From Bradymonadia bacterium (GTDB lineage Bacteria; Myxococcota_A; Bradymonadia; UBA7976; UBA1532): a DNA stretch of 64,000 bases. The position numbers and the translations under genes are program-made. Location: assembly GCA_046290225.1 (NCBI GenBank), contig JBKAGE010000034.1, forward strand, positions 343,598-407,597. Reading direction: 5' to 3'. The notes beneath the pieces were generated by a model that saw nothing but the letters and a program-made list of their open reading frames with translations, did not search any database and was not told the origin of the DNA. Positions 17,808-32,165 of the stretch are shown here, piece after piece. Within the stretch, counting starts at the first letter, position 1; each line of letters opens with the position of its first letter.

Positions 17808-19973
17808 TCAGGGTCGGACACACCGAAAATCGTCCGCCGCCATCACCCCATCAGCGCTCTTGTCGATCAGCTCGATCTGTACTTCCCGGCCTCGCAGTGA
17901 TCGCGTGTCGAGGCTCACCCGTCGCAGCGCTCGCCCTGAGGGCACCGGCTTGCGGTGAAGCAGCTCCCCATTGGAGAGCAGCCGCACCTCGAGGCCTGGC
18001 TTTCGATCCCCTGCAGCCATCCACGTGAGGCGATCACACTCCAGAGTAAACGGCGCAGACGTCAGGCGACCCGCTTCGTCGGCGCGGTTGCTGACCATCA
18101 CCCAGTCTCCCTGTACCCCCGAAACCCTGCCTGAGCGCAGGCGGGCCCGTCGCTTTTGAGCAGGAGCCTCGGAGAAGCCCCCCGAAGCAGTCCAGCCCGT
18201 TGTCTGTCCTGCCTCGAAGTTTCCCGTGATGCCTGGGGCGAGCTCCCGGGGCTCTGGATCTTGCGCCAGCCACAGCTCTGCCGGCCTCACCAGGAAGCCA
18301 GTCTTCGCTCGAAGCACATCTTTGTCGGGCCAGACAAGCCGATCAGCGAGGTAGTACTGGCGACCAAGGCCCGGCACTCGATTGCGCTCATCCACGACCA
18401 CGGCAGCCCACTCCTTCTTCCGCAGACGGGGGCCGAGATCTTTGAGGCCCTTCATGAAAGCGACGTCCTGGATGCCCATCTGGTGCGTGTGCACCTGCCC
18501 GTCCCGGGTGTAGGCATAGAATGGGTGTGCGGGCATGAAAACCTTGCCCTTCACCTCCGACAGCTGACGGTCGAGCTGGGCCACAGCCTCGTGATCTGCG
18601 CTGCCCGGCACTTGCTCTGCGGGGTTGTATGCCAGGGCGATGAACTGCAGGGCCAGTGCAGCGGGCACGAGGGCAGTCCACCGATGACTTGAAGGTTGAG
18701 GTGTGCCTTCGGCATCACCTGCTTGGGTCAGATCCCGGACGGCCAGCGCGATCAGGATGCTCCCGAAGACGCTCAAGGGCATGAAGCAGTTGCTGTAGGC
18801 CCATTGGGTGCTGTGATTGAGCGCGCTCGAGCCTGCACCGGCGACGAACATCCAGAGCCAGAAGCCATGGGTGCGGGGGGCGATAGCCACACCGCGTCGA
18901 GCCACACGATAGGCCACCAACATCAACACCATCACCGCGGGTGGCACCATGATGAGCCAGTGAGGCTCTACATAGAACAGCTCCCGGTAGTACATGTGAG
19001 GCATGTCCTTCCAGCCGCTGTTGGCCCGCAAGAACCACGCGTAGGTCCAGTGGGCCGACAGGAGCAGGCTCGGCAGGACGATGGGCACCTTGTATCCAAA
19101 CCACAGCAGTGGGATCAGCAGGAGCACCGGCGCCAGACACAGCACATCTCGCCAGTACTCCATCAAGATGTTCTTCCAATAGAACAAGTGCCCTTGGTGA
19201 CCCTCGAAGGTGTACACCCAGAACCAGCCATCAGTGGCCTGGTTGGCCACGTACACACCAAGAGCACCCAGCCCGAAGGCAAGTGCGCCGAACACTACGC
19301 CGTGTCGCCAGTTGCGCCACAGCAAGTACACCGCGATGGCGGGGGTGAACACGCTGGCAGTCTGCTTGGTGAAGAAACCCACCACACACAGCACAGCGGC
19401 GAGGATGACGCCTCGCCATCGCGGCATCGTGTAGGCGACGTACACCGCCCACAGCATGATGGTGATGAACAACGCGTCGGGGCGGACCAGGTCATAGAAG
19501 GCCCCGTTGAGCCGGAAGAGCGAGGCGTAGATGCCCATGGCCAGCAAGCCGAAGCGCACCCCAGCCTCCCGACGGCCGATGAGGAACAAACAGTAGAACG
19601 TCGACAACGTCGCCGCGAGGGAGACGAGCCGGCCCAACGTGAAGGATAGTCCCCCAGTGATCTGGGACAGACCCCACAACGTGATCGGATACCCCGGTGT
19701 GTAGAAAAATGGCACGAAGTCAGCGCTGGGCTCGGCGTAGATCGGCTGGCCCGAGGCGAGGCGGGCGGCGTGGGCCAGCATGCCCCCCTCCATCCACTCC
19801 ACCTCGAAGGGGTAGAACACCCTGATCAAGGCGACGACCACGAAGATCACCACATAGATCAGCCCCATGGTCACGGCGACGTCGAGCAGGCGCCGAGTGA
19901 TGGGGGGCGTGTTGAACGGCTCAGTCACGGCAGCTCGCGTCAACGGAGGCTCCAGTGAGGTTGATGTCTGCAT
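17808..19973 (-). CDS. polytopic membrane protein, putative GT-C family (PMT/ArnT-like) glycosyltransferase with C-terminal periplasmic domain
   Basis: more than 10 predicted TM helices in the N-terminal 450 aa; soluble C-terminal roughly 250 aa; start assigned to internal Met (MQTSTSLEPP) to avoid overlap with the divergent gene, so start is uncertain. Confidence 0.55.
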   Translation of the reverse strand: MQTSTSLEPPLTRAAVTEPFNTPPITRRLLDVAVTMGLIYVVIFVVVALIRVFYPFEVEWMEGGMLAHAARLASGQPIYAEPSADFVPFFYTPGYPITLWGLSQITGGLSFTLGRLVSLAATLSTFYCLFLIGRREAGVRFGLLAMGIYASLFRLNGAFYDLVRPDALFITIMLWAVYVAYTMPRWRGVILAAVLCVVGFFTKQTASVFTPAIAVYLLWRNWRHGVVFGALAFGLGALGVYVANQATDGWFWVYTFEGHQGHLFYWKNILMEYWRDVLCLAPVLLLIPLLWFGYKVPIVLPSLLLSAHWTYAWFLRANSGWKDMPHMYYRELFYVEPHWLIMVPPAVMVLMLVAYRVARRGVAIAPRTHGFWLWMFVAGAGSSALNHSTQWAYSNCFMPLSVFGSILIALAVRDLTQAGDAEGTPQPSSHRWTALVPAALALQFIALAYNPAEQVPGSADHEAVAQLDRQLSEVKGKVFMPAHPFYAYTRDGQVHTHQMGIQDVAFMKGLKDLGPRLRKKEWAAVVVDERNRVPGLGRQYYLADRLVWPDKDVLRAKTGFLVRPAELWLAQDPEPRELAPGITGNFEAGQTTGWTASGGFSEAPAQKRRARLRSGRVSGVQGDWVMVSNRADEAGRLTSAPFTLECDRLTWMAAGDRKPGLEVRLLSNGELLHRKPVPSGRALRRVSLDTRSLRGREVQIELIDKSADGVMAADDFRCVRP

Positions 19974-20055
19974 CGGCGGATGCGCTGCCTGCGCAGCGCC
20001 GAGACAGGGGGCAAAGTTTGCGGCCCGGCAGTATATAGCGTTCATTCATCTGGAG

Positions 20056-22008
20056 ATGACCAGAAACCGCCCATTGTCCTGTCTCGCTGGAGGCCTCTGC
20101 GCCGGTCTCACCGTCGCGACGCTACATCTCGTGTGGCTCCTCGAGGCGCTGCCCGATGCGCTTCTGAGCCACGAACGGGCTCTGGCAGGTGCCTATGCCC
20201 TCGTACCGCTCCTCACGGTGGCCCTGCTCGTGGGCGGCGCGCTCCAGGGGGTGTGGTGGGCTCGACACCGACTGGCTGATGGCGGGCGACGATGGTTATC
20301 CCGGCTGCTCTGGGGCGCCTCGGCTCTGGCTGTATCGACGCCCGTGGCCTTGTCTCTCGGTGACCGCCTTCAGCCTGTGCTGGCCCACCCGGGAGGCTGG
20401 CCGGCGCTTCAACTGTTGCTCATCTGCGGGCTCGCCCTGCCCTGGGCGTGGGCCCTGAGTAAAATCCCAGCCTCACTGGCTTCGATCTCGAGTGTCTACC
20501 TGAGCCGGCGTCTGCCCTTCGTCGTCGCGGGCATATGTATCGTGGGGGGCCATGGCCTTGTGCATCACCTGCACAGCGTCCCCCAGGTCCAGCGGGCCCT
20601 GCTCGAGCACGCGCCGGGCTTCTCGGGCCTCGCCCTGGCGCTTCAGCCTCTCTTCGATGGCGATGGTGACGGCTTCGCTGATCGTTTTGGCGGAGGAGAC
20701 TGTGACGATGGCGATCCGAATGTGCACCCCAGCGCCCGGGAGATCCCGGGGAATGGTGTGGACGAGGATTGCTTCGGCGGTGACGCTCCGATCCTGCGCG
20801 CTCCGGAGCCCGAGGTGGCCGCGCCAGCACACCCCGACACCTTTCCCCCCGTGGAGCAACCCAACCTCGTCCTCATCACCGTCGACACGCTGCGACCTGA
20901 TGCCCTCGGCGCCTATGGCAACACCTTGGGGCACACCCCGCACCTCGACGCCCTCGCCCACGGCGGGCTGCAGTTCGACTGGGCCTTCGCCCAGGGGCCA
21001 CAGACCAAGGCCTCCGTGCCATCGATGTTCACGGGCGTCTACTTCTCCGAAGTCGATCGAACGCCTGACGCCTGGGCCCGGACCTATGAGACGCACACCA
21101 CCATCGCCGAGCACCTGAAGTCTGCGGGGTACACCACCGCGGGCGTGCCCTGTCACCGCTTCTTCTTGCCCCGGTATGGGCTGGACCAGGGCTTCGACCA
21201 CTGGGATCTCTCTGTGGTACGCGCCCACAACCAGGATGTGGTGCATCACATCACTGGGGGGGAGATCACCGAGCGAGCTTTGACGTGGTTGGAGAGCGAT
21301 GCTGCTCGGGAGAAGCCGTTCTTCTTGTGGCTGCACTACTTCGACCCACACCACTTCTACCAGGACCACGAGACCATCGAAGGTTTTGGCGCGGATGATC
21401 AGGGTCGATACGCGGAAGAGGTGGCCTACACCGATCAGCAAATCGGTGCGTTGATGCAGGCCCTCTCAGCGCCTCCCTTCGCCGATCGCACCTATGTGAT
21501 GGTGCACAGCGATCACAGCGAGGCCTTTCACGACCATGGGTACCGCTATCATGGGGCCCACCTCTACAACGATCAGATCAGGGTGCCTCTGTTGCTGTGG
21601 GGGCCAGGCCTCCAGGGTCACGTGGTGGATCAGCCCGTGGCTCTGCTCGACGTGATGCCCACCCTGCTCGCCCTCGCAGGGGCGCCACCAGAGGTACGGG
21701 CGAGAGGTCGCTCTTTGTTGGGGCACCGCGTGGGCTCGCCTCGGCAGCCTCCGCCCCGACCGATCTTCTCGGAGATGGTCAAAGACGCCACCCACAGCGC
21801 CCGGCGAGTCATCGTCGAGTGGCCCTGGAAGCTGCACTACAGCATCACCTACGACCACTATGCGCTCTTCGACCTGAGCGCAGATCCGAAGGAGCAGACG
21901 GACGTACTCGAGGCGCACCCTGACGTCGCCGAGGCCTTGAAGCGCCGGCTACGACGTTGGATGAGTCAGGAGGTTGAGCGGGCCATGCCACGATGGCCTC
22001 AGAAGTGA
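20056..22008 (+). CDS. sulfatase-family (alkaline-phosphatase superfamily) protein with N-terminal membrane domain, LtaS/EptA-like architecture
   Basis: N-terminal TM helices; sulfatase N-domain NLVLITVDTLRPDALGAYG...SVPSMFTG; canonical C/S-x-P-x-R is replaced by S-V-P-S-M. Confidence 0.7.
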   Translation: MTRNRPLSCLAGGLCAGLTVATLHLVWLLEALPDALLSHERALAGAYALVPLLTVALLVGGALQGVWWARHRLADGGRRWLSRLLWGASALAVSTPVALSLGDRLQPVLAHPGGWPALQLLLICGLALPWAWALSKIPASLASISSVYLSRRLPFVVAGICIVGGHGLVHHLHSVPQVQRALLEHAPGFSGLALALQPLFDGDGDGFADRFGGGDCDDGDPNVHPSAREIPGNGVDEDCFGGDAPILRAPEPEVAAPAHPDTFPPVEQPNLVLITVDTLRPDALGAYGNTLGHTPHLDALAHGGLQFDWAFAQGPQTKASVPSMFTGVYFSEVDRTPDAWARTYETHTTIAEHLKSAGYTTAGVPCHRFFLPRYGLDQGFDHWDLSVVRAHNQDVVHHITGGEITERALTWLESDAAREKPFFLWLHYFDPHHFYQDHETIEGFGADDQGRYAEEVAYTDQQIGALMQALSAPPFADRTYVMVHSDHSEAFHDHGYRYHGAHLYNDQIRVPLLLWGPGLQGHVVDQPVALLDVMPTLLALAGAPPEVRARGRSLLGHRVGSPRQPPPRPIFSEMVKDATHSARRVIVEWPWKLHYSITYDHYALFDLSADPKEQTDVLEAHPDVAEALKRRLRRWMSQEVERAMPRWPQK

Positions 22009-22020
22009 CAGATGACAGCT

Positions 22021-22698
22021 CTACAGCGCCGCCGCCCTGGCAAAGAGACTCTTCCCCACTCTGTGCCACCCCAGGGGGCGCGCCTCTCGAGCGGCCGGGC
22101 GTGCCTCGATGCGGTCCACGTAGGCCTGGAGTCGGGGCCATCGCTCACCGAGGATGAGCCCTCTTCGGATTTGATATCCCAAGGCCGGATAGAAGACACA
22201 GTCGGCGAGGGTGAGTGCTGGCCCGGCGATCCAAGGGTGCTCTTCGAGATGACTGGACCAGATGCTCAGCTCCTGAGCCACCCTGGCCGGCGCCGCCCGG
22301 GCTGCCTCGATTTGCTCAGACGACAACGACGACTGTTGGAGGAACAATGCTTCCAGGGGTCGATACGCCATGCGCAGACGCTCCACCTCGTACATGCGCT
22401 GGAGCATCAGTGCCATGGCCGGGCCCTCGGGACACAACGACGTCTCCGGCCGGCTGGCCTCCAGCCAGTGCAAGATGGCCATGGACTCACACACCGTCGT
22501 GCCGTCAGGCTCCACCCAGACCGGTGCCTGTCCTCTGGGGTTGATGGCCAGAAACTCAGGGCTGCGCGTCTCCCGGGTCGAGCCCATGACTTTGAGACGC
22601 CGGCTCTCGTACTCCACCCCCCGCAGGTGGCACGCCAGCATCACCTGCCAGCTCGGGATGGAGCCGTTGATCCAGTAAAGAGTGGGTCGCTCACTCAC
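22021..22698 (-). CDS. glutathione S-transferase family protein
   Basis: GST N-domain motifs (LYWINGSIPSW..., ESMAILHWLE); GTG start chosen so the overlap with the upstream gene is only 8 nt (the ATG at 22848 would overlap by 158 nt). Confidence 0.7.
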   Translation of the reverse strand: MSERPTLYWINGSIPSWQVMLACHLRGVEYESRRLKVMGSTRETRSPEFLAINPRGQAPVWVEPDGTTVCESMAILHWLEASRPETSLCPEGPAMALMLQRMYEVERLRMAYRPLEALFLQQSSLSSEQIEAARAAPARVAQELSIWSSHLEEHPWIAGPALTLADCVFYPALGYQIRRGLILGERWPRLQAYVDRIEARPAAREARPLGWHRVGKSLFARAAAL

Positions 22699-24121
22699 GA
22701 GGGCGCCCCATATCGAGGATGTCGAACCCCTGACCGTACTCTGCGTCCCAGTCGAAGTCTGGCGTACGATTCTCAAGGCCAAAGGCACGACTGAGTTGGT
22801 CACGCTGCACCGCCCAGGGCCGGCCTTCGAAACCCGGCTTGGGGGCACCCTGGCCGGAGATCGAGCCGTCCGCCTCGATGAAGGTGGAGACGGTTCGGAA
22901 GGTGAGGCTGATGCGGGCGCCGCCCTGAATCAGGGCCGAGGCGGGGCGCTCACCTTCAGTCCGTTTGTCGGGTTTGATGCCGTGTTGAAACAGGCGGTTG
23001 GTTCGCCAGCCCAGAACAAAGAGCGAGTTGTGAGGCATTTCCACCTGACGGGTGGCACCGCTGGCCTTGTCTTTGAGCACCATCATACGTGTGGCGCCGA
23101 GGCTCAGGTTCACCACCGCGCTCCCCCGCTCGATGTCGAGGGTTTTGTCGGCGTGCACCCCGATGTGGCTGTAGCCGTCAGGGTAGAGCTGAATCAACGC
23201 GTGATTGAGCCGCTGTCCGAGACGTCGCTCAGCAGCGATCTTGAGCTTCTCCACTGTGGGCGTCCAGGGCGTGAGGACGGGCTGCTCGTCTGCAGGATGA
23301 CGGTAGAGGGGCGTACGATCGTGCTCCACAGTGGCCTGGATCGCCATACGTCGGGGGACGGGGCTGCCACGGTGCACCATGTCCTGCCAGTCGATCTCGG
23401 CCATGAGATCGTCAAAGGCCGTCTCTGCCAGATCTGACGAGAGCACCCCGTACATCACCGCACTGTCGCCGGCGCCGATCCCCGACCGATCTGCACCCCA
23501 CTGGCCGAGCAGCTCCGCGGAGGAGATCAATTGTCCATAGTGTGTGCCGATGGCAGTGAGCCCGCGATGATGCCGGTTGGGCGTCGTGGCACCGATACAG
23601 TCGGCGATCGCCACCACCTCATACCCGAGGAAGAACGCATCGGCGGCGGTGGCTTGCACGCACACGTTGGCCACCACACCGGTGATGAAGACCCGCTTCA
23701 CTCCAGCCGCTCGCAGCGCGTCGTGGAGCGTCGTTTCAGTAAAGGCAGAGTACCTGTCTTTGACGATCTGTCGGTCTTCCGGTGCGACCAGCTCTGCAGC
23801 AGGTGGCCAGAGCTCGGCCCCCTCTGAGTCGGGGCGGCAACACGGACGACCCGCATGACCGCTGGCGAGGTAGTCGTCGTTCTGCGGCACCCCTTTCGCC
23901 CACGCCTCTTCAGGCCGAGGCGGCCGAACGGGTGGAGGTGCCTCCACACGCTCAGGGTAGTGGCTGGAGACCCAGAAGATCGCCATGCCTCGGCGTCGGG
24001 CCTCAGGCAGCACGGCGCCCAGGGACTCCACGAGGGCGTCGCCAGGCACTGGCCGCTTGAACATACGCTCTGCTTCGAGAAAATCTCTTTGCAGATCAAT
24101 GATGATGATGGCGTCGCTCAT
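22691..24121 (-). CDS. fusion protein: N-terminal isochorismatase-family cysteine hydrolase plus C-terminal AlkB-like 2OG-Fe(II) oxygenase domain
   Basis: AGGAGG RBS 7 nt upstream of ATG (MSDAIIIIDLQRDF); isochorismatase motifs (VFITGVVANVCV...DC); C-terminal LYPDGYSHIGVHADKT...NLSLG...R.N..HGI (HxD...H dioxygenase motif). Confidence 0.7.
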   Translation of the reverse strand: MSDAIIIIDLQRDFLEAERMFKRPVPGDALVESLGAVLPEARRRGMAIFWVSSHYPERVEAPPPVRPPRPEEAWAKGVPQNDDYLASGHAGRPCCRPDSEGAELWPPAAELVAPEDRQIVKDRYSAFTETTLHDALRAAGVKRVFITGVVANVCVQATAADAFFLGYEVVAIADCIGATTPNRHHRGLTAIGTHYGQLISSAELLGQWGADRSGIGAGDSAVMYGVLSSDLAETAFDDLMAEIDWQDMVHRGSPVPRRMAIQATVEHDRTPLYRHPADEQPVLTPWTPTVEKLKIAAERRLGQRLNHALIQLYPDGYSHIGVHADKTLDIERGSAVVNLSLGATRMMVLKDKASGATRQVEMPHNSLFVLGWRTNRLFQHGIKPDKRTEGERPASALIQGGARISLTFRTVSTFIEADGSISGQGAPKPGFEGRPWAVQRDQLSRAFGLENRTPDFDWDAEYGQGFDILDMGRPRE

Positions 24122-24229
24122 GACTTCGTCCTCCTGGCAGCGAAAAATATCATCATTCTTTTCGAATCGGTGTCCCATGATGCGCAGCCGACGTGTCTCC
24201 ACACTGTGACCACCACGGGAGCATGGTTC

Positions 24230-25987
24230 ATGGGCCGATCACTGTTGACATCCAGCACCTCGCCAGTGGCCAGAGCATTGCCATCGACGTCGTGGCTGAG
24301 CCCACTGTCCCTGGCGCTGTGCGCCAGCCTCTGGCTGGCGTCCATGGCCCAGGCCCGTGAGGTCAACGAGGCCGCAGATCAACTGCCCATCGCTGAGCGG
24401 TATGCCCTGGTGGTGGGGCACAACCAGCCCGGCCCTGGTCAATCTGCGCTGCGCTATGCCGAGCAGGACGCCGAAGCCTTCGCTGATGTCCTCACCACGC
24501 TCGGTGGGTTCCCCGAGGATCGCGTGATGCTGTTGCGGCAGCCCACAGCGGCGAAGGTTCGAGCGGCGTTGAGCCATCTCGAAGCCGAGGTGGGCGCTCA
24601 ACACGATCGAGGGGCCCGAACTCTGGTGACGTTCTACTATTCAGGTCACGCCCGCCGTGATCGCCTCGACCTCGGGGCTGATCCCCTGCCCCTCGAGGAG
24701 CTGCGGGCCAGCCTGGAGGGCCTCGAGGCCACAGTGACGCTGGTGGTGCTCGATGCATGCCGCAGCGGTTCGTTCTCCCGGGCCAAGGGGGCCACCGCAG
24801 TGGCCGACTTCGGGTTCGACCGCGCCCGGCAGCTGGACACTCGAGGGTTGGCGGTGATGGCCTCCAGCGCGGCGGAGGAGCTGAGCCAGGAGTCCGAGCG
24901 CCTACAAGGCTCGTTCTTCACCCATCACTTGCTCGCTGCTCTCCGTGGCGCCGGCGACACCGATACAGATGGTCGAGTGTCCCTGCGAGAGGCCTACACA
25001 TATGCCTACAACCAGACCTTGGTGAGCACGGCTCAGACTGCCATCGGCCAACAGCATGTCTCCTTCGAAACAGGCCTCGAAGGCCGCGGCGCTCTGTGGC
25101 TCACTGCGCCAGGTGAGAACGGCAGTCAGCTCGTGCTCCCCTCTGACCTCGCTGGTGAAGCCCTCGTCACCCACCAGGGCCCCTCGGGCACCACAGTGAT
25201 CGCCGAGCTGCACCGGCCTCAGAATGGTGCTGTCAGCCTCGCGGTGAGCCCAGGTCGGTACCAGACGCTCCTGCGTCAGGGGGATCAAATCGGCACCTGT
25301 GTCACCACAGTGGCCCCTGGAGCGCGGCAGAGCGTCTCCCCAGCACAGTGTGCCTTCGGCCCGGTCACAGCCACCGTGGACAAGGGGGCCCTCGGCGCTG
25401 AGGGGACGGATACGCCTTCGCGCAGATGGTCCGTGGAAGTCGCCCTTGGCCTCGCCGACACCCAAGACTCGCCTTACACCGATCGACTGCGAGATTTCGA
25501 CTATCACCGACAGGACGCCCTCTTCGATCTCGTGCCCCGCTATGTGGTGGGTGCTGGCTATCAGCTCGACGATGTGTGGAGCGTGCATCTCACGGGTCGA
25601 AACCTCGGCCAGGCACGATGGCGAATTCATGCTGATGGCGCTGACGACGTCGACACCAATGGCGATACCGACTTCACGTTCAACACATTGGCTCTCACCG
25701 TACACCTGCGTCGACAGGTGAACCTCTTCGATGGGCGCCTGGTGCCCTATGTGCAAGCTGGAGCCGGACCCGCCCTGGCGTGGAGTCGCCTCGAGAACAG
25801 CCCCATCGAATATCACGGCGGTTTTGCGCTGATGGGTGGTGCGGGCGTGCAGCTGATGCCGTGGGACGTCCTCGGGGGCTTCGTGGAGTTCTCCTGGAGC
25901 TACGCGCCGGTCATGGAAAACCTCATCGGCGATACCCACGATCACGGTGGTCGCGCCTTCATCTTCGGCCTGAGAGGAGCCCTCTGA
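24230..25987 (+). CDS. caspase-family (peptidase C14) protein with signal peptide and C-terminal beta-rich domain
   Basis: signal peptide MGRSLLTSSTSPVARALPSTSWLSPLSLALCASLWLASMAQA; catalytic dyad context YYSGHA ... LVVLDACRSG; GGGAG RBS upstream. Confidence 0.75.
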   Translation: MGRSLLTSSTSPVARALPSTSWLSPLSLALCASLWLASMAQAREVNEAADQLPIAERYALVVGHNQPGPGQSALRYAEQDAEAFADVLTTLGGFPEDRVMLLRQPTAAKVRAALSHLEAEVGAQHDRGARTLVTFYYSGHARRDRLDLGADPLPLEELRASLEGLEATVTLVVLDACRSGSFSRAKGATAVADFGFDRARQLDTRGLAVMASSAAEELSQESERLQGSFFTHHLLAALRGAGDTDTDGRVSLREAYTYAYNQTLVSTAQTAIGQQHVSFETGLEGRGALWLTAPGENGSQLVLPSDLAGEALVTHQGPSGTTVIAELHRPQNGAVSLAVSPGRYQTLLRQGDQIGTCVTTVAPGARQSVSPAQCAFGPVTATVDKGALGAEGTDTPSRRWSVEVALGLADTQDSPYTDRLRDFDYHRQDALFDLVPRYVVGAGYQLDDVWSVHLTGRNLGQARWRIHADGADDVDTNGDTDFTFNTLALTVHLRRQVNLFDGRLVPYVQAGAGPALAWSRLENSPIEYHGGFALMGGAGVQLMPWDVLGGFVEFSWSYAPVMENLIGDTHDHGGRAFIFGLRGAL

Positions 25988-26520
25988 TGTGGAACAGTAC
26001 CCGTAAAATCTGCGCCCTGGCCCTCGTAGCCCCCATGTTGATGGGCAACACGTGTGATGCGCTGCTCAACGACGATCCCTTCTTCGAAGCCTGGTGCGGC
26101 GAGTCACTGTGTGACTGGACGGTGGAGGCAGGCACCGTGCGCAAGGTGTCCACCTGGCACAGCGCAGATCACGGCGTCGCCCTCGATGGACCCCAGGTGG
26201 CCATCAGCCAGATCTTTGAAGAGCGCGATGTGGACTGCCTCTTCATCGATCTGCTCACAGACGTCAGCCCAGGTGCCAATGTCGAGCTGCTCGTCGACTT
26301 CGGCCTCGATGGGGATGTCGACGTGCGGCACGCCATCGACGGACGTGATTGGAACGAGGTGAACTACTACATCACCCCTCCGGCGCCGGATGCTTCAGGG
26401 AAAACGGCCATGAAGCTGACCATCGAGAAGACCGGCGATGCCCGAGCAGTCCTCGGCCGCATCGCGCTGTACGACACCGCCCGAGAGCACTGTACGGCAC
26501 CGCCGACGGAGACTGACTGA
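25987..26520 (+). CDS. small secreted Cys-containing protein, function unknown (translationally coupled to the caspase gene)
   Basis: ATG overlaps the upstream stop (TGATG); signal peptide MWNSTRKICALALVAPMLMGNTC. Confidence 0.55.
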   Translation: MWNSTRKICALALVAPMLMGNTCDALLNDDPFFEAWCGESLCDWTVEAGTVRKVSTWHSADHGVALDGPQVAISQIFEERDVDCLFIDLLTDVSPGANVELLVDFGLDGDVDVRHAIDGRDWNEVNYYITPPAPDASGKTAMKLTIEKTGDARAVLGRIALYDTAREHCTAPPTETD

Positions 26521-26523
26521 GCC

Positions 26524-27003
26524 GTGGAGATCTACGCGCTGTACGGCCCGGCGTTGGTGCGCAAGGCCACCCGGATCCTGCACAGCGAAGACGACGCTCG
26601 AGATGTGGTGCAGGGGCTGTTCCTCGATCTGCTGAAGAAGCGAAAGACCGAGGCCACCCTGCCCTACCTCTATCAGGCCATCACGCGCCGTTGCCTGAAC
26701 CATCTGCGGGACACGCGCAATCGGCAGCGGCTGCTCGACGCCCATGGCGACATGCTCACGCCTTCAGGGGCGTCCACCCTTGAGGGGCGCACCCTCGACC
26801 GGGCCCTCATCGTGGCCCTTGCCCAACGCCTCGATCGAAAACGGTTCGAAGTGATGGTGCACCGCTACATCGACGAGATGGGGGTCGAGGAGATCGCCCA
26901 GCTCACGGGTCGCAGCCGGAAGACCATCGGCCGCTGGCTCAGCCAGATCACCCAGGAAGCCCGGCGCCTCGCCGCTGAGTCTGCAGGAGACGACCATGCA
27001 TGA
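26524..27003 (+). CDS. RNA polymerase sigma factor, ECF subfamily
   Basis: sigma-70 region 2 (DDARDVVQGLFLDLL) and region 4 (VMVHRYIDEMGVEEIAQLTGRSRKTIGRWL). Confidence 0.8.
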   Translation: MEIYALYGPALVRKATRILHSEDDARDVVQGLFLDLLKKRKTEATLPYLYQAITRRCLNHLRDTRNRQRLLDAHGDMLTPSGASTLEGRTLDRALIVALAQRLDRKRFEVMVHRYIDEMGVEEIAQLTGRSRKTIGRWLSQITQEARRLAAESAGDDHA

Positions 27004-27643
27004 GCCCATCAGCTGGCTGACCCTGGAACGGTATCACCTCGGCGAGCTCGACCCTTCAGAGGCCACGGCGCTGCAGGCGAAGATCGAGGTCGATCCGACG
27101 CTCGCTGCTCGACTCGCACAGATCGAGGCAGGCACTTCACTGAAGCCGCTCCCGGTTCAGAATGCACCACAGCCCACGTGGACGATGTGGAAGTGGGCGC
27201 TCCCCATCGCCGCAGTTGCAGCCGTCGCAGTGGCCGTGTTGCCTGGCAAGTCAGTGGTCCCACCTGGGTACATCGGTGCCAAAGGTGGAGAGCCTTTGTC
27301 TCTCACCCTGGTGGCCCAAAGGGGCGATCAGTATGTGCCCATCTCTCACCAATTTACCCCTGATGACGTGCTCAAGGTGCAGGTGACCTGCGCTCCGCCT
27401 GACCAGGAGCGCGTTCAGGTGGTGGTCTTCCAAGAGGACGGAGCCAGCTTCCCTTATCCTGAGCCGCCAGAGGTTCAATGCGGGAACGCAGTTTTGTTGC
27501 CCGGCGCTTTTAGAATCGACCCTGCCGAAGCCAGGGTGTGCGCGCTGCTCTCGGCAGACCATGTCGACCGAGCCCGTTTCCTCTCTGATGGGGTGAAGGC
27601 TCTCCCCGCCCACGCACAGTGCATAACGATCGCCCCATTGTGA
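26996..27643 (+). CDS. anti-sigma factor (N-terminal cytoplasmic anti-sigma domain, one TM helix, periplasmic domain)
   Basis: overlaps the sigma-factor gene by 8 nt; N-terminal WLTLERYHLGELDPSEATALQAKIEVDP motif; TM WKWALPIAAVAAVAVAVL. Confidence 0.7.
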   Translation: MHEPISWLTLERYHLGELDPSEATALQAKIEVDPTLAARLAQIEAGTSLKPLPVQNAPQPTWTMWKWALPIAAVAAVAVAVLPGKSVVPPGYIGAKGGEPLSLTLVAQRGDQYVPISHQFTPDDVLKVQVTCAPPDQERVQVVVFQEDGASFPYPEPPEVQCGNAVLLPGAFRIDPAEARVCALLSADHVDRARFLSDGVKALPAHAQCITIAPL

Positions 27644-27789
27644 ACCTCGACACAGTCGATGCTGTGAACCGCCGTTGACGCCCCGTCGAATCCCGCCTGA
27701 AAACTGGCCTTTTCAGATCTGGCACGGCCCCTGCTTTATCCCCTGGCGTCCGCAATCGAGACCCACACTGAGACGGGAGAGCACCTCAC

Positions 27790-29373
27790 ATGGCCCACGC
27801 GACACTCAAAGCCCTCATGCCTCTGGCCCTCGCCACCCTCACTGCCTGTGGCGCAATGGATGATGATGCCTACGACAGCGGGGATCAGGGCGGGGCCTAC
27901 TATCCCCCGGCACCGAACAACGGCTATGTCCCGCCGCAAGAGACCCCGCCCAGCGGGGATCCTCAGTCCGGGGAGCAATATGAGCACTACGGCCACAACC
28001 CCTTCGTGGACGCTGAAGAGGACAACCTCGCCACCTTCGCCATCGACGTGGACACTGCGAGCTACACGCTCACCCGCAGGAACATCAACAATGGCTGGCT
28101 GCCGGATCCTGCTTCGATCCGTGTGGAAGAGTTCATCAACTACTTCAAGTACGCCGACGAGGGCCCTGCCCCCTCCGACGCTCGCCCCTTCGCCATTCAC
28201 ATGGAGGTGGCGCCCTCGTTGTTCGGTGACAGCGCTGGCGGCCAGGCCGCGGACGATGTGGAGCGCTCGCTGATGCGGGTGAACATTCGCGGCATCGATC
28301 TCGAAAACGAAGAGCGCAAGTCCGCGAACCTCGTGTTCCTGCTCGACGTCTCCGGCTCCATGTCCAGCCCCGACAAGCTGGGTCTCGTGCAGTACAGTAT
28401 GCGACGTCTCACGGAGACATTGCGCCCCGACGACACCATCAGCATCGTGGTCTATGCGGGCGCCGACGGCGTGGTGCTCCCCCCCACCCCGGTCTCCAAC
28501 GCTGGCCGCATCATCGATGCTGTCGAGAGCCTGCGACCTGGTGGCGGGACCAACGGCGAGGCGGGCATTCGCACGGCCTACCGCCTCGCTCAGGAAGCCT
28601 ACAAGAACGACGGCATCAACCGGGTGATCCTGTGTACCGACGGCGACTTCAACGTGGGCCTCACCGGCGACGCCCTGGTGGGGCTCATCGAGGAGAAGCG
28701 CGACGAGGGTGTCACCCTCACGGTCCTCGGCTTCGGCAGCGGGAACTACAACGATCGCACGATGGAGCAGCTGGCCAACAAGGGGAACGGCAACTACGCG
28801 TACATCGACCAGATCGCCGAAGCGGAGCGGGTGCTCGTCGAAGGCATCACCGGCACACTGCAGGTCATCGCCAAGGACGTGAAGATCCAGGTGGAGCTGA
28901 ACAGCGACGCTGTGGCCCGATACCGGCTCATCGGGTACGAAAACCGCGACATCGCCGACGACCAGTTCCGCGACGACGCGGTGGACGCTGGGGAGATCGG
29001 CGCCGGCCACCAGGTGACGGCCTACCTCGAGCTGGAGCTACAGCCCAATGTGCGGGCCGACGCCACCCTCGACCTGGCCACGGTCCGGGTGCGCTACAAG
29101 GCCCCTGATGCCACGGCGGACGACGCCGCCCTCGAGGAGGTGGCCCGTACGCTGGAGATGGGGGCCCATCGACGGGACTTCGAGGACGCCAGCGACGACT
29201 TCCAGTTCGGCGCAGCCGTAGTGGAGTTCGCCGAGGTCCTCCGGGAGAGCCCGCACAGCGTCGGTCGCCGCCTCGGTGAGCTTCAGAGCGTAGCCCGCCG
29301 CGCTGCCGGCGACGACGCACGACGCGCCGAGTTCATCGAGCTCGTAGAGCGTGCCGCCACCCTCACCCGCTGA
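27790..29373 (+). CDS. von Willebrand factor A domain lipoprotein (YfbK-like, vWA plus DUF3520-type C-terminus)
   Basis: lipobox LALATLTACG; MIDAS motif LLDVSGSMS; conserved N-terminal FAIDVDTASYT and C-terminal VRVRYKAP.. regions. Confidence 0.8.
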   Translation: MAHATLKALMPLALATLTACGAMDDDAYDSGDQGGAYYPPAPNNGYVPPQETPPSGDPQSGEQYEHYGHNPFVDAEEDNLATFAIDVDTASYTLTRRNINNGWLPDPASIRVEEFINYFKYADEGPAPSDARPFAIHMEVAPSLFGDSAGGQAADDVERSLMRVNIRGIDLENEERKSANLVFLLDVSGSMSSPDKLGLVQYSMRRLTETLRPDDTISIVVYAGADGVVLPPTPVSNAGRIIDAVESLRPGGGTNGEAGIRTAYRLAQEAYKNDGINRVILCTDGDFNVGLTGDALVGLIEEKRDEGVTLTVLGFGSGNYNDRTMEQLANKGNGNYAYIDQIAEAERVLVEGITGTLQVIAKDVKIQVELNSDAVARYRLIGYENRDIADDQFRDDAVDAGEIGAGHQVTAYLELELQPNVRADATLDLATVRVRYKAPDATADDAALEEVARTLEMGAHRRDFEDASDDFQFGAAVVEFAEVLRESPHSVGRRLGELQSVARRAAGDDARRAEFIELVERAATLTR

Positions 29374-30796
29374 GTGCATACACCTCGCCCCTCACCCTCC
29401 CTACGCCACCTTCTGATTGCACAGTCAAGGTGTCGAAGGGGGCTGAGGGCATCACAAGCGCGCTCAACCCTCGCCGCCCACACAGCGAGAACACCTCGAC
29501 CGAGCCGTGATCGATGATGAGCCTGATGCCATGGCTCGCCTGCCCCGGCGCTTCGCAGAGTGTCGGGCCCTCCCGCTGAGCGAACACCGTGGAGCGGTCG
29601 AGAGACATCCCCTCAAATCCCACACGGATCACCACCCGCTCCCCCGCAACACCAGAGAGTGTCACCACCACAGTGAGATCGTCTCGCTCCGGCAGCCAAT
29701 CCACGCTCACATCAGCCACTTCGGGCAGACTCATCTTCAATGTGCTCTCGTTCAGAGGCTTCCAGGGCAGTTCCTGATGCGCACCTCGAAACGCCTCGAG
29801 CTGCTCTGCGGGCAAAGCAGACAGCCGCAAACCCTCAGGTGTCTCTTTCAGTGACAGAGTGCGCGGCGTCGCCATGGCGCCTCGCCATGTCGTGGCCGGT
29901 ACCGTCCGGGCGTACTTCCAGTTGTTCATCCAGCCCAGCATCAACACCGACGTCGATGGTGTCGGAGCCCCAGACCACGTGACGGCTGCATAGTGGTCCG
30001 GTCCGTAGTCCAACCAGAGTGGTTGCTCGATCGGCTCCGCCACGAACCGCTCACCATCAAAGTCACCTACGAAATATTGCGTGCCTGAGCCTGAGTTGGG
30101 GCCACCATCGTCCAGGCTGACCAGCATGATCCAGCGGGTGCGGCCCTCGTATTCGAGGGGGAACACATCAGGGCACTCCCACACGCCTCCATGGGCGCCG
30201 AGGCCTTCACCGAAGTCCGAGCTGTGGTGCCAGCGCCGCAGATCCCGCGAGACCCAAATCTGTACCCGATCCCCAGCGGCGAGCACCATCACCCATCGAC
30301 CCGTGGGCCGGTGCCAGCGCACCTTCGGATCTCTGAAGTCCTTCAGGCCTGGGTTGGGGATGATGGGATTGTCGGGCCATTCACACCAGGTCTGCCCCTT
30401 GTCGGTGCTGTACGCCAGGCTCTGGACCTGATGCCCCTCGGCGGTGGAGTGCGTAAACAACGCAACGATCGAAGGTGCGCCGACCCCAAGTGTGTCGTGG
30501 GCATCAAAGACAGCACACCCGGAGAAAACCATGCCCAGTTCTGGGTGAGGCTTCAGCGCCGGCGGGTGGTATTGCCACCTGACAAGATCGGTCGAAGTGG
30601 CGTGGCCCCAATGAATGTCCCCCCACGAGAGGCCGTTCGGGTTGGCTTGGTAGAAGAGGTGATACACCCCATCGACGTACACCATGCCATTGGGATCGTT
30701 CATCCACCCCACCTCAGGGGTGAAATGGATGATGGGGCGGAGGGGGATGTAGGGCATGTGCTCGCTCTGCGTGGTGAGAGACATCGGGTCTACCAC
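29363..30796 (-). CDS. glycoside hydrolase family 32 (beta-fructofuranosidase/levanase-like)
   Basis: GH32 signature HFTPEVGWMNDPNGMVY...YHLFYQ; RDPKV and EC motifs further in. Confidence 0.8.
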   Translation of the reverse strand: MVDPMSLTTQSEHMPYIPLRPIIHFTPEVGWMNDPNGMVYVDGVYHLFYQANPNGLSWGDIHWGHATSTDLVRWQYHPPALKPHPELGMVFSGCAVFDAHDTLGVGAPSIVALFTHSTAEGHQVQSLAYSTDKGQTWCEWPDNPIIPNPGLKDFRDPKVRWHRPTGRWVMVLAAGDRVQIWVSRDLRRWHHSSDFGEGLGAHGGVWECPDVFPLEYEGRTRWIMLVSLDDGGPNSGSGTQYFVGDFDGERFVAEPIEQPLWLDYGPDHYAAVTWSGAPTPSTSVLMLGWMNNWKYARTVPATTWRGAMATPRTLSLKETPEGLRLSALPAEQLEAFRGAHQELPWKPLNESTLKMSLPEVADVSVDWLPERDDLTVVVTLSGVAGERVVIRVGFEGMSLDRSTVFAQREGPTLCEAPGQASHGIRLIIDHGSVEVFSLCGRRGLSALVMPSAPFDTLTVQSEGGVGRVRGEVYALSG

Positions 30797-31034: not shown

Positions 31035-31151
31035 CGAGGCGTAGCTCAGCCAGGGAGAGCGCCCGCTGTTGAAAAATGGTGTCCGACTGTCTCGACGTCT
31101 TACTTCGCTTTGGGGGCGGGAGGTCGCAGGTTCGAATCCTGCCGTCTCGCA
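31035..31151 (+). ncRNA. tRNA-like RNA (tRNA-Pro-derived) with a ~43-nt insertion at the 5' side of the anticodon loop; candidate Y-RNA-like tRNA mimic
   Basis: 7-bp acceptor CGAGGCG/CGTCTCG, D arm GCTCAGCCAGGGAGAGC, T arm GCAGGTTCGAATCCTGC, anticodon stem CCCGC/GCGGG flanking the insert, then a TTTGGGG loop identical to the tRNA-Pro(UGG) loop. Confidence 0.6.
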
Positions 31152-31223: not shown

Positions 31224-31332
31224 CGAGGTGTAGCTCAGTCTGGTAGAGCGCTTGATGATGATGTCCGACTGCCTTGATGTCTTACTTCGCTTTGGGTGCG
31301 AGAGGTCGCAGGTTCGAATCCTGCCACCTCGA
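31224..31332 (+). ncRNA. tRNA-like RNA with a ~38-nt insertion in the anticodon arm (same conserved motif); candidate Y-RNA-like tRNA mimic
   Basis: acceptor CGAGGTG/CACCTCG (perfect), D arm GCTCAGTCTGGTAGAGC, T arm GCAGGTTCGAATCCTGC; insert contains GTCCGACTG...TGTCTTACTTCGC followed by TTTGGGT. Confidence 0.6.
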
Positions 31333-31382: not shown

Positions 31383-31489
31383 GGGGGTGTAGCTCAGTGG
31401 TGAGAGCGCTATTACAGATTTCCGACTGTCTGGATGTCTTACTTCGACTGTCAATCGAGAGGTCGTGGGTTCGAATCCCACCGCCCCCG
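31383..31489 (+). ncRNA. tRNA-like RNA with a ~40-nt insertion in the anticodon arm (same conserved motif); candidate Y-RNA-like tRNA mimic
   Basis: acceptor GGGGGTG/CGCCCCC (one GU pair), D arm GCTCAGTGGTGAGAGC, T arm GTGGGTTCGAATCCCAC; insert TTCCGACTGTCTGGATGTCTTACTTCGACTG. Confidence 0.55.
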
Positions 31490-31553: not shown

Positions 31554-31627
31554 CGGAGTGTAGCTCAGCCTGGGAGAGCCGACGGTTTGGGGCCGTAAGG
31601 TCGCAGGTTCAAATCCTGCCACTCCGA
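31554..31627 (+). tRNA. tRNA-Pro (anticodon UGG)
   Basis: 74-nt cloverleaf: acceptor CGGAGTG/CACTCCG, D arm GCTCAGCCTGGGAGAGC, anticodon loop TTTGGGG, T arm GCAGGTTCAAATCCTGC; no encoded CCA. Confidence 0.8.
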
Positions 31628-31733
31628 CAGTGTTTTTCAGATCCTGCCCTTCGGGCGCCCCTCCGCTCCTACGGCTTCGCCTCCGTCGGCTGCGGGGCGT
31701 CCGGCCGCAGGCCGGACAGGATCGCGAGTGTTT
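31628..31733 (+). repeat. structured ~100-bp repeat unit A (multi-hairpin, UUCG tetraloop, GUCCGGCC-GCAG-GCCGGAC hairpin)
   Basis: three near-identical copies in the window (also 31726-31830 and 32061-32165); outer stem GATCCTG/CAGGATC. Confidence 0.75.
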
Positions 31734-31986: not shown

Positions 31987-32060
31987 CGGGGTGTAGCTCA
32001 GCCTGGAAGAGCGCACGGTTCGGGTCCGTGAGGCCGCAGGTTCAAATCCTGCCACCCCGA
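31987..32060 (+). tRNA. tRNA-Pro (anticodon CGG)
   Basis: 74-nt cloverleaf: acceptor CGGGGTG/CACCCCG, anticodon stem CACGG/CCGTG, loop TTCGGGT, T arm GCAGGTTCAAATCCTGC. Confidence 0.85.
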
Positions 32061-32165
32061 CAGTGTTTTTCAGATCCTGCCCTTCGGGCGCCCCTCCGCT
32101 CCTGCGGCTTTGCCTCCGTCGGCTACGGGGCGTCCGGCCACAGGCCGGACAGGATCGCAGGCTTC
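32061..32165 (+). repeat. structured ~100-bp repeat unit C (third copy, again directly 3' of a tRNA-Pro)
   Basis: about 92% identical to unit A. Confidence 0.75.

Follow-up and report, generated by a model that had tools for sequence, protein, structure and literature searches.

In a 2012 survey, Asplund-Samuelsson et al. (PMC3501461) found 4 of the 5 metacaspases of Myxococcus xanthus DK1622 in predicted operons with sigma-70-family factors, and they reported the same structure in Anaeromyxobacter, Haliangium, and Sorangium. The subject of this analysis is a four-gene set in a 64-kb stretch of a Bradymonadia genome (64,000 nucleotides of contig JBKAGE010000034.1, about 65% G+C, hereafter the window), which joins the gene for a caspase-family protease with a predicted outer-membrane barrel to the genes for a small partner protein, a sigma factor of the ECF (extracytoplasmic function) type, and its anti-sigma factor. 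The set very probably belongs to the metacaspase-sigma-70 class of the 2012 survey, a class defined there by co-occurrence alone. The association of metacaspases with sigma factors is therefore not itself new, having been recorded in that survey, which reported co-occurrence without the barrel, partner, anti-sigma factor, promoter, topology, or mechanism. Our literature search, with the ECF classification supplement outside its scope, returned no paper on an ECF and Peptidase_C14/metacaspase system in Myxococcus, and none that describes the barrel, partner, anti-sigma factor, promoter, or mechanism of the present genes. We consider the four genes to be most likely a trans-envelope signalling operon conserved in Myxococcota.

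The genes lie at positions 24230-27643 of the forward strand with next to no spacing between them, behind a promoter-like motif:

24170-24197 (+): ECF-type promoter-like bipartite motif, upstream of the caspase gene
24230-25987 (+): caspase gene (Peptidase_C14), 585 aa, first in the operon
25987-26520 (+): partner gene, 177 aa, its ATG sharing an A with the caspase TGA (cccTGATGtgg)
26524-27003 (+): ECF (group IV) sigma-70 gene, 159 aa, GTG start three bases past the partner stop
26996-27643 (+): anti-sigma gene, 215 aa, its ATG overlapping the sigma stop (27001-27003), with 8 nt in common

A sequence-only reading of this DNA had claimed that the partner gene starts on the caspase stop, that an ECF sigma gene follows the partner, and that this gene overlaps its anti-sigma gene, and all three junctions are present as listed. 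The same gene order is found on a Logan contig.

The closest studied system is DdvA-DdvS of M. xanthus, in which the anti-sigma factor DdvA carries a periplasmic caspase-fold TPR-CHAT region and has been proposed, so far without proof, to serve as its own site-1 protease before RseP (PMC11506125). CHAT domains have also been linked to group ECF54 (PMC8999054). Both DdvA-DdvS and the present system come from Myxococcota and combine an ECF sigma factor with a single-pass anti-sigma factor (here a member of a ZAS-type family) and a caspase-fold Cys protease placed, here by prediction, in the periplasm; in both, a site-1-like cut beside the transmembrane helix followed by RseP is proposed, and the N-terminal profile of the anti-sigma factors described here matches the DdvA structure. 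In DdvA, however, CHAT and TPRs are fused to the anti-sigma factor, the protein is a dimer acting in trans, and it controls a CBASS/CRISPR island, whereas the present set has a separate C14 protease predicted to be anchored in the outer membrane, a small (about 120 aa) periplasmic domain on the anti-sigma factor, a partner resembling a carbohydrate-binding module (CBM), and no linked defence genes.

The sigmaE-RseA-RseB-DegS-RseP system of E. coli offers a parallel: its ECF sigma factor is bound by an anti-sigma factor with a single membrane pass, its dedicated periplasmic site-1 protease senses outer-membrane status, an accessory periplasmic protein binds ligand, and the operon is autoregulated. 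There, DegS is a serine (HtrA) protease of the inner membrane whose gene lies elsewhere, and the fold of RseB is LolA-like, whereas the candidate protease here is a caspase-family Cys protease, predicted to sit in the outer membrane and encoded within the operon; homology is limited to the sigma/anti-sigma core. FecA-FecR-FecI, where an outer-membrane barrel with a periplasmic N-terminal domain signals to an inner-membrane anti-sigma factor, and RcsF-OmpA, where a sensor lipoprotein accompanies an OmpA-like barrel, resemble the present set in layout only. There is no RcsF homology here, the barrel has 8 strands and is not a TonB-dependent 22-strand transducer, and the FecR family was not recovered among 64 anti-sigma members, 1 of which matches DUF4880 weakly (E=0.022).

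Bacterial caspase homologs are abundant, but to our knowledge a substrate or a physiological role has been established for almost none of them; the few exceptions are Craspase and PCaspase, both cytoplasmic defence proteases. In Craspase (Csx29-Csx30-CASP-sigma) and in the Haliangium SAVED-CHAT-PCaspase-PCc-sigma-PCi system, cleavage by a caspase-fold protease governs an ECF-like sigma factor encoded next to it, and the likeness to the second extends further, since PCaspase is a myxobacterial Peptidase_C14 protein and the small neighbour PCi modulates it. These systems are cytoplasmic, nucleotide- or RNA-activated, and defence-linked, whereas the present set exports all of its sensory parts and has nothing of CARF, SAVED, or Cas around it. 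What sets the present genes apart from the known modules is their C14 (not CHAT) protease, separate outer-membrane barrel protein, CBM-like partner, and lack of a defence context, and ECF sigma/anti-sigma signalling with a dedicated protease is a plausible mechanism for them.

Domains and predicted location of the four proteins

The caspase protein divides into the following parts:

24230-24355 (+): signal peptide, N-terminus MGRS...LWLASMAQA, then REV
about 24395-25072 (+): caspase domain (Pfam and structure model)
24647-24649 (+): catalytic His140, in YYSGHA
24758-24760 (+): catalytic Cys177, in LDACRSG
24785-24790 (+): Lys186-Gly187 of the disordered post-Cys loop
25097-25363 (+): beta-sandwich, residues 290-378, with two invariant Cys (structure model)
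25427-25984 (+): 8-strand barrel, residues 400-585 (structure model and Foldseek)

The claim that this is an orthocaspase-type C14 protease is borne out by Pfam PF00656 (Peptidase_C14), which matches residues 57-245 in one stretch (profile positions 2-198 of 233; E=5.3e-16, 59.5 bits against a cutoff of 21.4); the NCBIfam caspase model gives E=1.8e-19, under that model's subfamily cutoff. The motifs YYSGHA and LDACRSG can be read directly, and across 114 aligned homologs there is no variation at His140, Cys177, Asp80, or Asp175. Compared with PDB entries, the homolog profile places Asp80 on the ND motif of plant metacaspase 4 and His140 on the catalytic His of Arabidopsis metacaspases 4 and 9, which secures the His half of the dyad in a profile alignment. 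The Cys half is weaker: hhalign against human caspase-3 puts Cys177 on the Cys of QACRG in its best segment, which is not significant. Judged by its sequence, the protein is a member of the C14 caspase family with an intact His/Cys dyad. Database searches recover hundreds of full-length relatives at 36-48% identity, and the named ones are all from Myxococcota (Sandaracinaceae, Kofleriaceae, Polyangia).

An AlphaFold2 (AF2) model built on the 114-sequence alignment has three domains and a mean predicted local distance difference test score (pLDDT) of 85.8. Most of residues 56-281, which adopt the caspase fold, exceed a pLDDT of 90, and Foldseek searches of the PDB with the N-terminus return a Candida metacaspase (7qp1), caspase-9 (3v3k), and AtMC9 with E of about 6e-6 to 1e-5 over 260-320 columns. 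The signal peptide that the sequence-only reading had assigned is present when translation begins at ATG 24230, and 107 of the 114 homologs have an N-terminal hydrophobic stretch. The deposited gene call begins instead at Met39 (24344; 547 aa), which drops the signal peptide and makes ATG 24230 the preferable start; the deposited annotation also lays a spurious 45-aa open reading frame (ORF) in another frame over the 5' end of the gene (24223-24360).

Two features of the catalytic domain bear on what it might cut. Asp80 and Asp175 presumably occupy the S1-pocket positions of published metacaspase structures. In metacaspases, these two Asp confer Arg/Lys specificity, and since both are invariant here, cleavage after Lys or Arg is predicted. 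Caspases and metacaspases also autoprocess in the loop after the catalytic Cys, the inter-subunit linker. In the AF2 model, residues 185-201, right after Cys177, are the sole low-confidence stretch within the caspase domain, and in this stretch Lys/Arg186 and Gly187 are each found in 114 of 114 homologs.

The C-terminal beta-rich region of about 350 aa had been taken for either an outer-membrane domain or a beta-propeller, and it is the outer-membrane alternative that survives. Residues 400-584 are modelled as eight long antiparallel strands with pLDDT above 95, and Foldseek returns the transmembrane domain of OmpA (TM 0.81, E=1e-9) along with OmpX, Ail, NspA, and OmpW; the model and the structure search together rule out a propeller. 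Pfam OMP_b-brl covers residues 400-549 of the window copy at 26 bits, just below the cutoff of 28.7, and is a precomputed match in several orthologs. Signals for beta-barrel assembly end in an aromatic residue or Leu, and the last residue is F, W, Y, or L in 70 of the 114 homologs. The model predicts that the caspase protein is anchored in the outer membrane through this OmpA-like barrel. Of its earlier description as secreted, export by a signal peptide holds, and free secretion does not fit the predicted anchor. Autotransporter-like secretion is ruled out by reference to the known type V systems, because the barrel has 8 strands rather than 12. Outer-membrane barrels with an even number of strands have both termini in the periplasm, so the caspase and beta-sandwich domains are predicted to hang into the periplasm from the outer membrane; by analogy with this general topology, the caspase domain should face the periplasm.

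The partner does have the signal sequence that had been read for it. Among its orthologs this sequence ends at a near-invariant Cys23, often in a lipobox-like context, and the protein is a probable lipoprotein. A core motif, DPxFDxWCGDxLCxW...TWH, is common to the orthologs, and most of them have a C-terminal extension, Cys-rich and about 190 aa long, that is missing from the window copy. The partner was matched by none of the Pfam, NCBIfam, or PADLOC families, and neither sequence nor profile comparisons linked it to RseB, to FecR-binding domains, or to any known protease inhibitor. Its fold is a generic CBM-like beta-jelly-roll. Jelly-rolls of this type bind protein in ephrin receptors and MAM domains, so glycan binding by the partner is only a lead. 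A word-index search with the single sequence returned the self match alone, and a profile search yielded 12 usable homologs; an exhaustive phmmer search raised this to 374 cluster representatives, which marks the partner as a small, specific family.

The sigma factor is, from its domain matches, a minimal ECF factor with sigma2 and sigma4 domains only. Pfam Sigma70_r2 covers residues 4-65 and Sigma70_r4_2 residues 95-141, and NCBIfam TIGR02937 (sigma70-ECF) scores 57.8 bits against a cutoff of 42.9. Two features of the anti-sigma factor matter for what follows:

27185-27247 (+): transmembrane helix, residues 64-84, single pass
27281-27286 (+): conserved juxtamembrane Lys96-Gly97

That the two proteins form a sigma/anti-sigma pair was among the earlier claims, and the orthologs bear this out: zf-HC2 is matched by 52 of 64 anti-sigma orthologs, HxxxCxxC is present in 57 of 64, and their profile finds the anti-sigma domains of M. 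tuberculosis RslA (3hug_B) and M. xanthus DdvA (8rot_B) in the PDB. The window copy has no Pfam family match and a weak NCBIfam anti-sigmaE match (E=0.0017); its zinc ligands are lost, likewise in its closest relative, and its transmembrane helix is kept. HxxxCxxC is missing from 7 of the 64 orthologs in all (the window copy, the closest relative L005, L013, L018, L035, L042, and L062), and these zinc-less copies retain the remaining N-terminal domain (26996-27120 in the window; PxSWLxLER...), a non-zinc variant inside the ZAS family.

Outside the membrane, about 120 aa of the anti-sigma factor form a periplasmic domain, which contains 4 conserved Cys and could be assigned to no family. The most conserved juxtamembrane feature is [VI]-K-G-G-[ED], about 12 residues past the transmembrane helix, with Lys/Arg96 in 63 of 64 orthologs and Gly97 in 62 of 64. 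A second set gives the same picture, the Lys/Arg-Gly pair being present in all 47 caspase loops and in 44 of 45 aligned anti-sigma factors. No CHAT or TPR match was found in the anti-sigma factor, and the protease is a separate C14 protein. A DUF4384-like identity for the periplasmic domain was rejected after Pfam DUF4384 matched none of the 64 members scanned, and a relationship to the caspase beta-sandwich was rejected after hhalign of the anti-sigma and caspase profiles gave nothing. The same comparison between the partner and anti-sigma profiles gave nothing.

Linkage and promoter across genomes

The genome set consisted of species-representative genomes, in which there are at least 562 relatives; the best 80 loci all come from Myxococcota-type metagenome-assembled genomes (MAGs). 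Linkage was counted by six-frame ORF searches, only at loci with enough flanking DNA. Linkage of all four genes holds at 75 of 76 genome loci and at 38 of 38 loci of an independent metagenome set, so that the co-occurrence of the caspase and the ECF pair, which had been put forward as a check across genomes, is near-universal. At the three loci looked up first, the gene order was the same and the flanks were unrelated. Cyclic permutations that keep the set intact occur at three loci (L046, L052, and L055), and some MAGs hold 2-3 copies of the set (e.g., DATEOF01 and JADGRE01).

In the permuted loci, the first gene behind the promoter motif described below encodes a stand-alone 8-strand barrel with homology to the C-terminal domain of the caspase, and a short partner gene comes next (L046 1308-1955; L052 3390-4160; L055 about 1420-2130). 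The recurrence of barrel and partner as a unit suggests that the two work together. At L046, a long partner gene is present in addition to the short one.

The only locus of sufficient length in which no sigma gene could be detected is L037, from the Polyangiales MAG DATEOF01. Its partner gene is followed by an overlapping, weak anti-sigma-like ORF and then by a vWA-like ORF. This copy may be decaying or rearranged, and the same MAG also has two intact sets (L053 and L082). Some MAGs with the gene set are titled 'uncultured Enterobacterales' (L013, L014, L045, L046, and L052) or 'uncultured Planctomycetales' (L051); these labels are probably wrong, the proteins being about 40% identical and the synteny and promoter the same.

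Upstream of the caspase gene, k-mer enrichment gave the family consensus GGTTCCCA-N14-CGTGT(C/T)(A/T)TA, located 20-90 nt ahead of the start codon. With up to 3 mismatches, the motif is found in this position in 46 of 73 genome loci, compared with 1 of 73 coding and 4 of 73 reverse-complement controls, and in 38 of 48 independent metagenome loci, compared with 0 of 48 coding controls. In 909 kb of locus sequence there are 49 matches on the plus strand, about 40 of them immediately upstream of a caspase gene, and only 6 on the minus strand. The window copy consists of GTGTCCCA (24170-24177, -35-like), a 14-nt spacer, and CGTGTC (24192-24197, -10-like). Between the end of this copy and the caspase ATG lie 32 nt, and the copy overlaps the divergent minus-strand gene at that gene's start. 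It has 2 mismatches and is the sole match at that stringency in the 64-kb window, where the motif taken alone is not significant (3 matches with up to 3 mismatches, against 8.4 expected). Its meaning comes from the position conserved across loci and not from window statistics. The layout is, on the face of the sequence, that of an ECF promoter, and its position suggests that it is read by the cognate sigma factor. A search of 23800-29600 found no sigma70-type promoter or intrinsic terminator. At one locus (L036), a vWA gene (7321-8943) is preceded at about 7289 by its own copy of the motif with 1 mismatch, so this gene can belong to the regulon.

Candidate roles of the caspase

The role that we tentatively favour for the caspase, while stopping short of calling it probable, is that of a site-1 protease acting on the juxtamembrane linker of the anti-sigma factor. 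At rest, the sigma factor would be retained at the inner membrane by the anti-sigma factor, with the caspase present as a latent zymogen. An envelope or extracellular cue would activate the caspase, possibly a glycan or a perturbation of the outer membrane sensed through the CBM-like partner, itself perhaps associated with the barrel. The caspase, predicted from its S1 pocket to cleave after Lys or Arg, would then autoprocess at Lys186-Gly187, 9 residues past Cys177, and clip the anti-sigma factor at Lys96-Gly97, about 12 residues outside the membrane, in what would amount to site-1 cleavage. The short stub left behind would pass to an RseP-type site-2 protease, and the sigma factor released in this way would transcribe its own operon from GGTTCCCA-N14-CGTGTC in positive feedback, and occasionally extra genes such as the vWA gene. 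If this is how the genes work, then the earlier phrase 'proteolytic signalling cassette' would describe them well.

The support for this site-1 role is circumstantial: the four genes are co-inherited, the caspase domain and the anti-sigma linker are predicted to share a compartment, and the two carry matching basic-Gly sites, which in the window read A-K-G-A in the caspase loop and A-K-G-G in the anti-sigma factor. The self-cleavage proposed for DdvA serves as a precedent. A more specific version, which we regard as doubtful, is a periplasmic caspase cascade in which the partner, as a CBM-like glycan-sensing lipoprotein, activates the outer-membrane-tethered C14 zymogen, which autoprocesses between Lys and Gly of a Val/Ile-Lys-Gly motif and cuts the same motif in the anti-sigma factor.

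Such a cascade, if real, would define, in predatory and social Myxococcota including Bradymonadia, a family of paralogous trans-envelope switches that limited proteolysis gates. Site-1 cleavage by the caspase would add to ECF sigma biology both a new class of site-1 protease and a new layout for signalling from the outer to the inner membrane. It would also give a functional meaning to the operon association noticed in 2012. The module, found in hundreds of species and at least 113 independent loci, supplies a well-delimited candidate for an envelope protease and its substrate, conserved to a very high degree. Since a cleavage site and a promoter read-out can be predicted for it and a candidate sensor named, it makes the role of bacterial metacaspases directly testable in a tractable relative such as M. 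xanthus.

Several points weigh against site-1 cleavage. The Lys-Gly match is a motif of 2-5 residues that was found post hoc, and the K-G-G of the anti-sigma factor begins the first beta-strand of the periplasmic domain, where its conservation could serve folding. The periplasmic orientation of the caspase is taken from general barrel topology, and the promoter is tied to this sigma factor by position alone. Covariation at P2 between the caspase loop and the cognate anti-sigma factor appeared in the genome set (23 of 58 against 14.9 expected, p about 0.003, robust to clustering) but failed in the independent, de-duplicated metagenome set (3 of 21 against 4.6 expected, p about 0.9). Phylogeny or post-hoc choice is its probable origin, which would make it an artefact, and because it did not replicate we do not count it as evidence. 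A sigma factor that induces its own activating protease would need some brake, and our proposal contains no candidate for one. Finally, a caspase gene placed first in an autoregulated operon fits an output role equally well.

That output role is the main rival, possible in our view if on balance unlikely. It holds that the sigma/anti-sigma pair senses alone, through the Cys-rich periplasmic domain and generic site-1 proteases, and that the caspase-barrel protein and the CBM-like lipoprotein are its regulon: an inducible, outer-membrane-tethered periplasmic protease and an adaptor that binds glycan or substrate, comparable to pairs of the Prc-NlpI type, for envelope remodelling, quality control, autolysis, or developmental cell death. 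The ECF-type promoter stands in front of the caspase gene, which makes the caspase and partner the first products of the operon. Effector genes are common in ECF operons, the vWA gene with its own promoter copy at L036 shows that this regulon can include effectors, and P2 covariation, which a dedicated protease-substrate pair would have been expected to show, failed in the second set. A pure effector, however, would be unlikely to stay with its regulators in about 113 of 114 loci, through permutations and with the flanks changing, and an output role leaves unexplained the conserved basic-Gly pair in the anti-sigma linker at site-1 distance from the membrane. The output and activator roles are not exclusive, because positive feedback could combine both.

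Another arrangement, which we judge distinctly less likely, would make the caspase-barrel protein, the partner, or both a negative regulator or adaptor that binds and protects the periplasmic domain of the anti-sigma factor until a signal releases the contact, in the manner of RseB on RseA or of an outer-membrane receptor tethering FecR; proteolysis would then serve self-removal or turnover of the partner. Strict co-inheritance of three periplasm-exposed components agrees with such a contact, as do the permuted loci, where barrel and partner recur together, and in Haliangium the small neighbour protein PCi is both inhibitor and substrate of PCaspase (bioRxiv 10.1101/2023.06.23.546230). The partner here, however, resembles neither RseB, FecR-binding domains, nor known protease inhibitors, its jelly-roll is of a generic kind, and the fully invariant catalytic apparatus argues that proteolysis is central.

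An anti-phage or abortive-infection module after Craspase-Csx30-CASP-sigma, SAVED-CHAT-PCaspase-PCc-sigma, or DdvA/DdvS is very improbable despite myxobacterial precedents tying caspase-fold proteases and ECF sigma factors to defence, since the weak PADLOC match to its 'caspase' model (E=3.5e-7) reflects a generic caspase domain alone, no CRISPR, CBASS, SAVED, CHAT, or TPR genes were found in the window neighbourhood or the inspected loci, the flanking genes are housekeeping and variable, and, unlike the known systems with their cytoplasmic location, the present one has all its sensing parts in the envelope.

Neighbouring genes

Downstream of the operon lies one further gene of interest:

27790-29373 (+): vWA/YfbK-type gene, 527 aa, 146 nt downstream of the anti-sigma gene

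Its product matches Pfam vWF_A, VWA, and YfbK_C. Among the loci analysed, such a gene adjoins the set only at L036 and L037, which rules it out as a core member, and the 146-nt spacer before the window copy holds no obvious copy of the promoter motif. It is a possible accessory member of the regulon, outside the conserved core.

On the other side, the divergent gene whose start overlaps the -35-like element (22691-24202, minus strand) encodes a fusion of an isochorismatase with a 2OG-Fe(II) oxygenase (AlkB-like, PF13532), and beyond it a sulfatase gene (19867-22008, plus strand) encodes an N-terminal membrane region and a MopE-like Cu-binding motif.

Farther downstream on the plus strand are three tandem tRNA-like genes (31035-31150, 31224-31332, and 31383-31489), near tRNA-Pro genes at 31554-31628 and 31987-32061. 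At 107-116 nt they are full-model Rfam tRNA matches of 47-52 bits that ARAGORN misses by default; under its intron option, two of them are called as Pro(tgg) and one, doubtfully, as Leu(cag), each with an insertion of 14-42 nt in the anticodon region. All three insertions contain TCCGACTGYCTNGAYGTCTTACTTCG, and folding gave no clear answer. Short conserved insertions in the anticodon arms of bacterial tRNAs are unusual.

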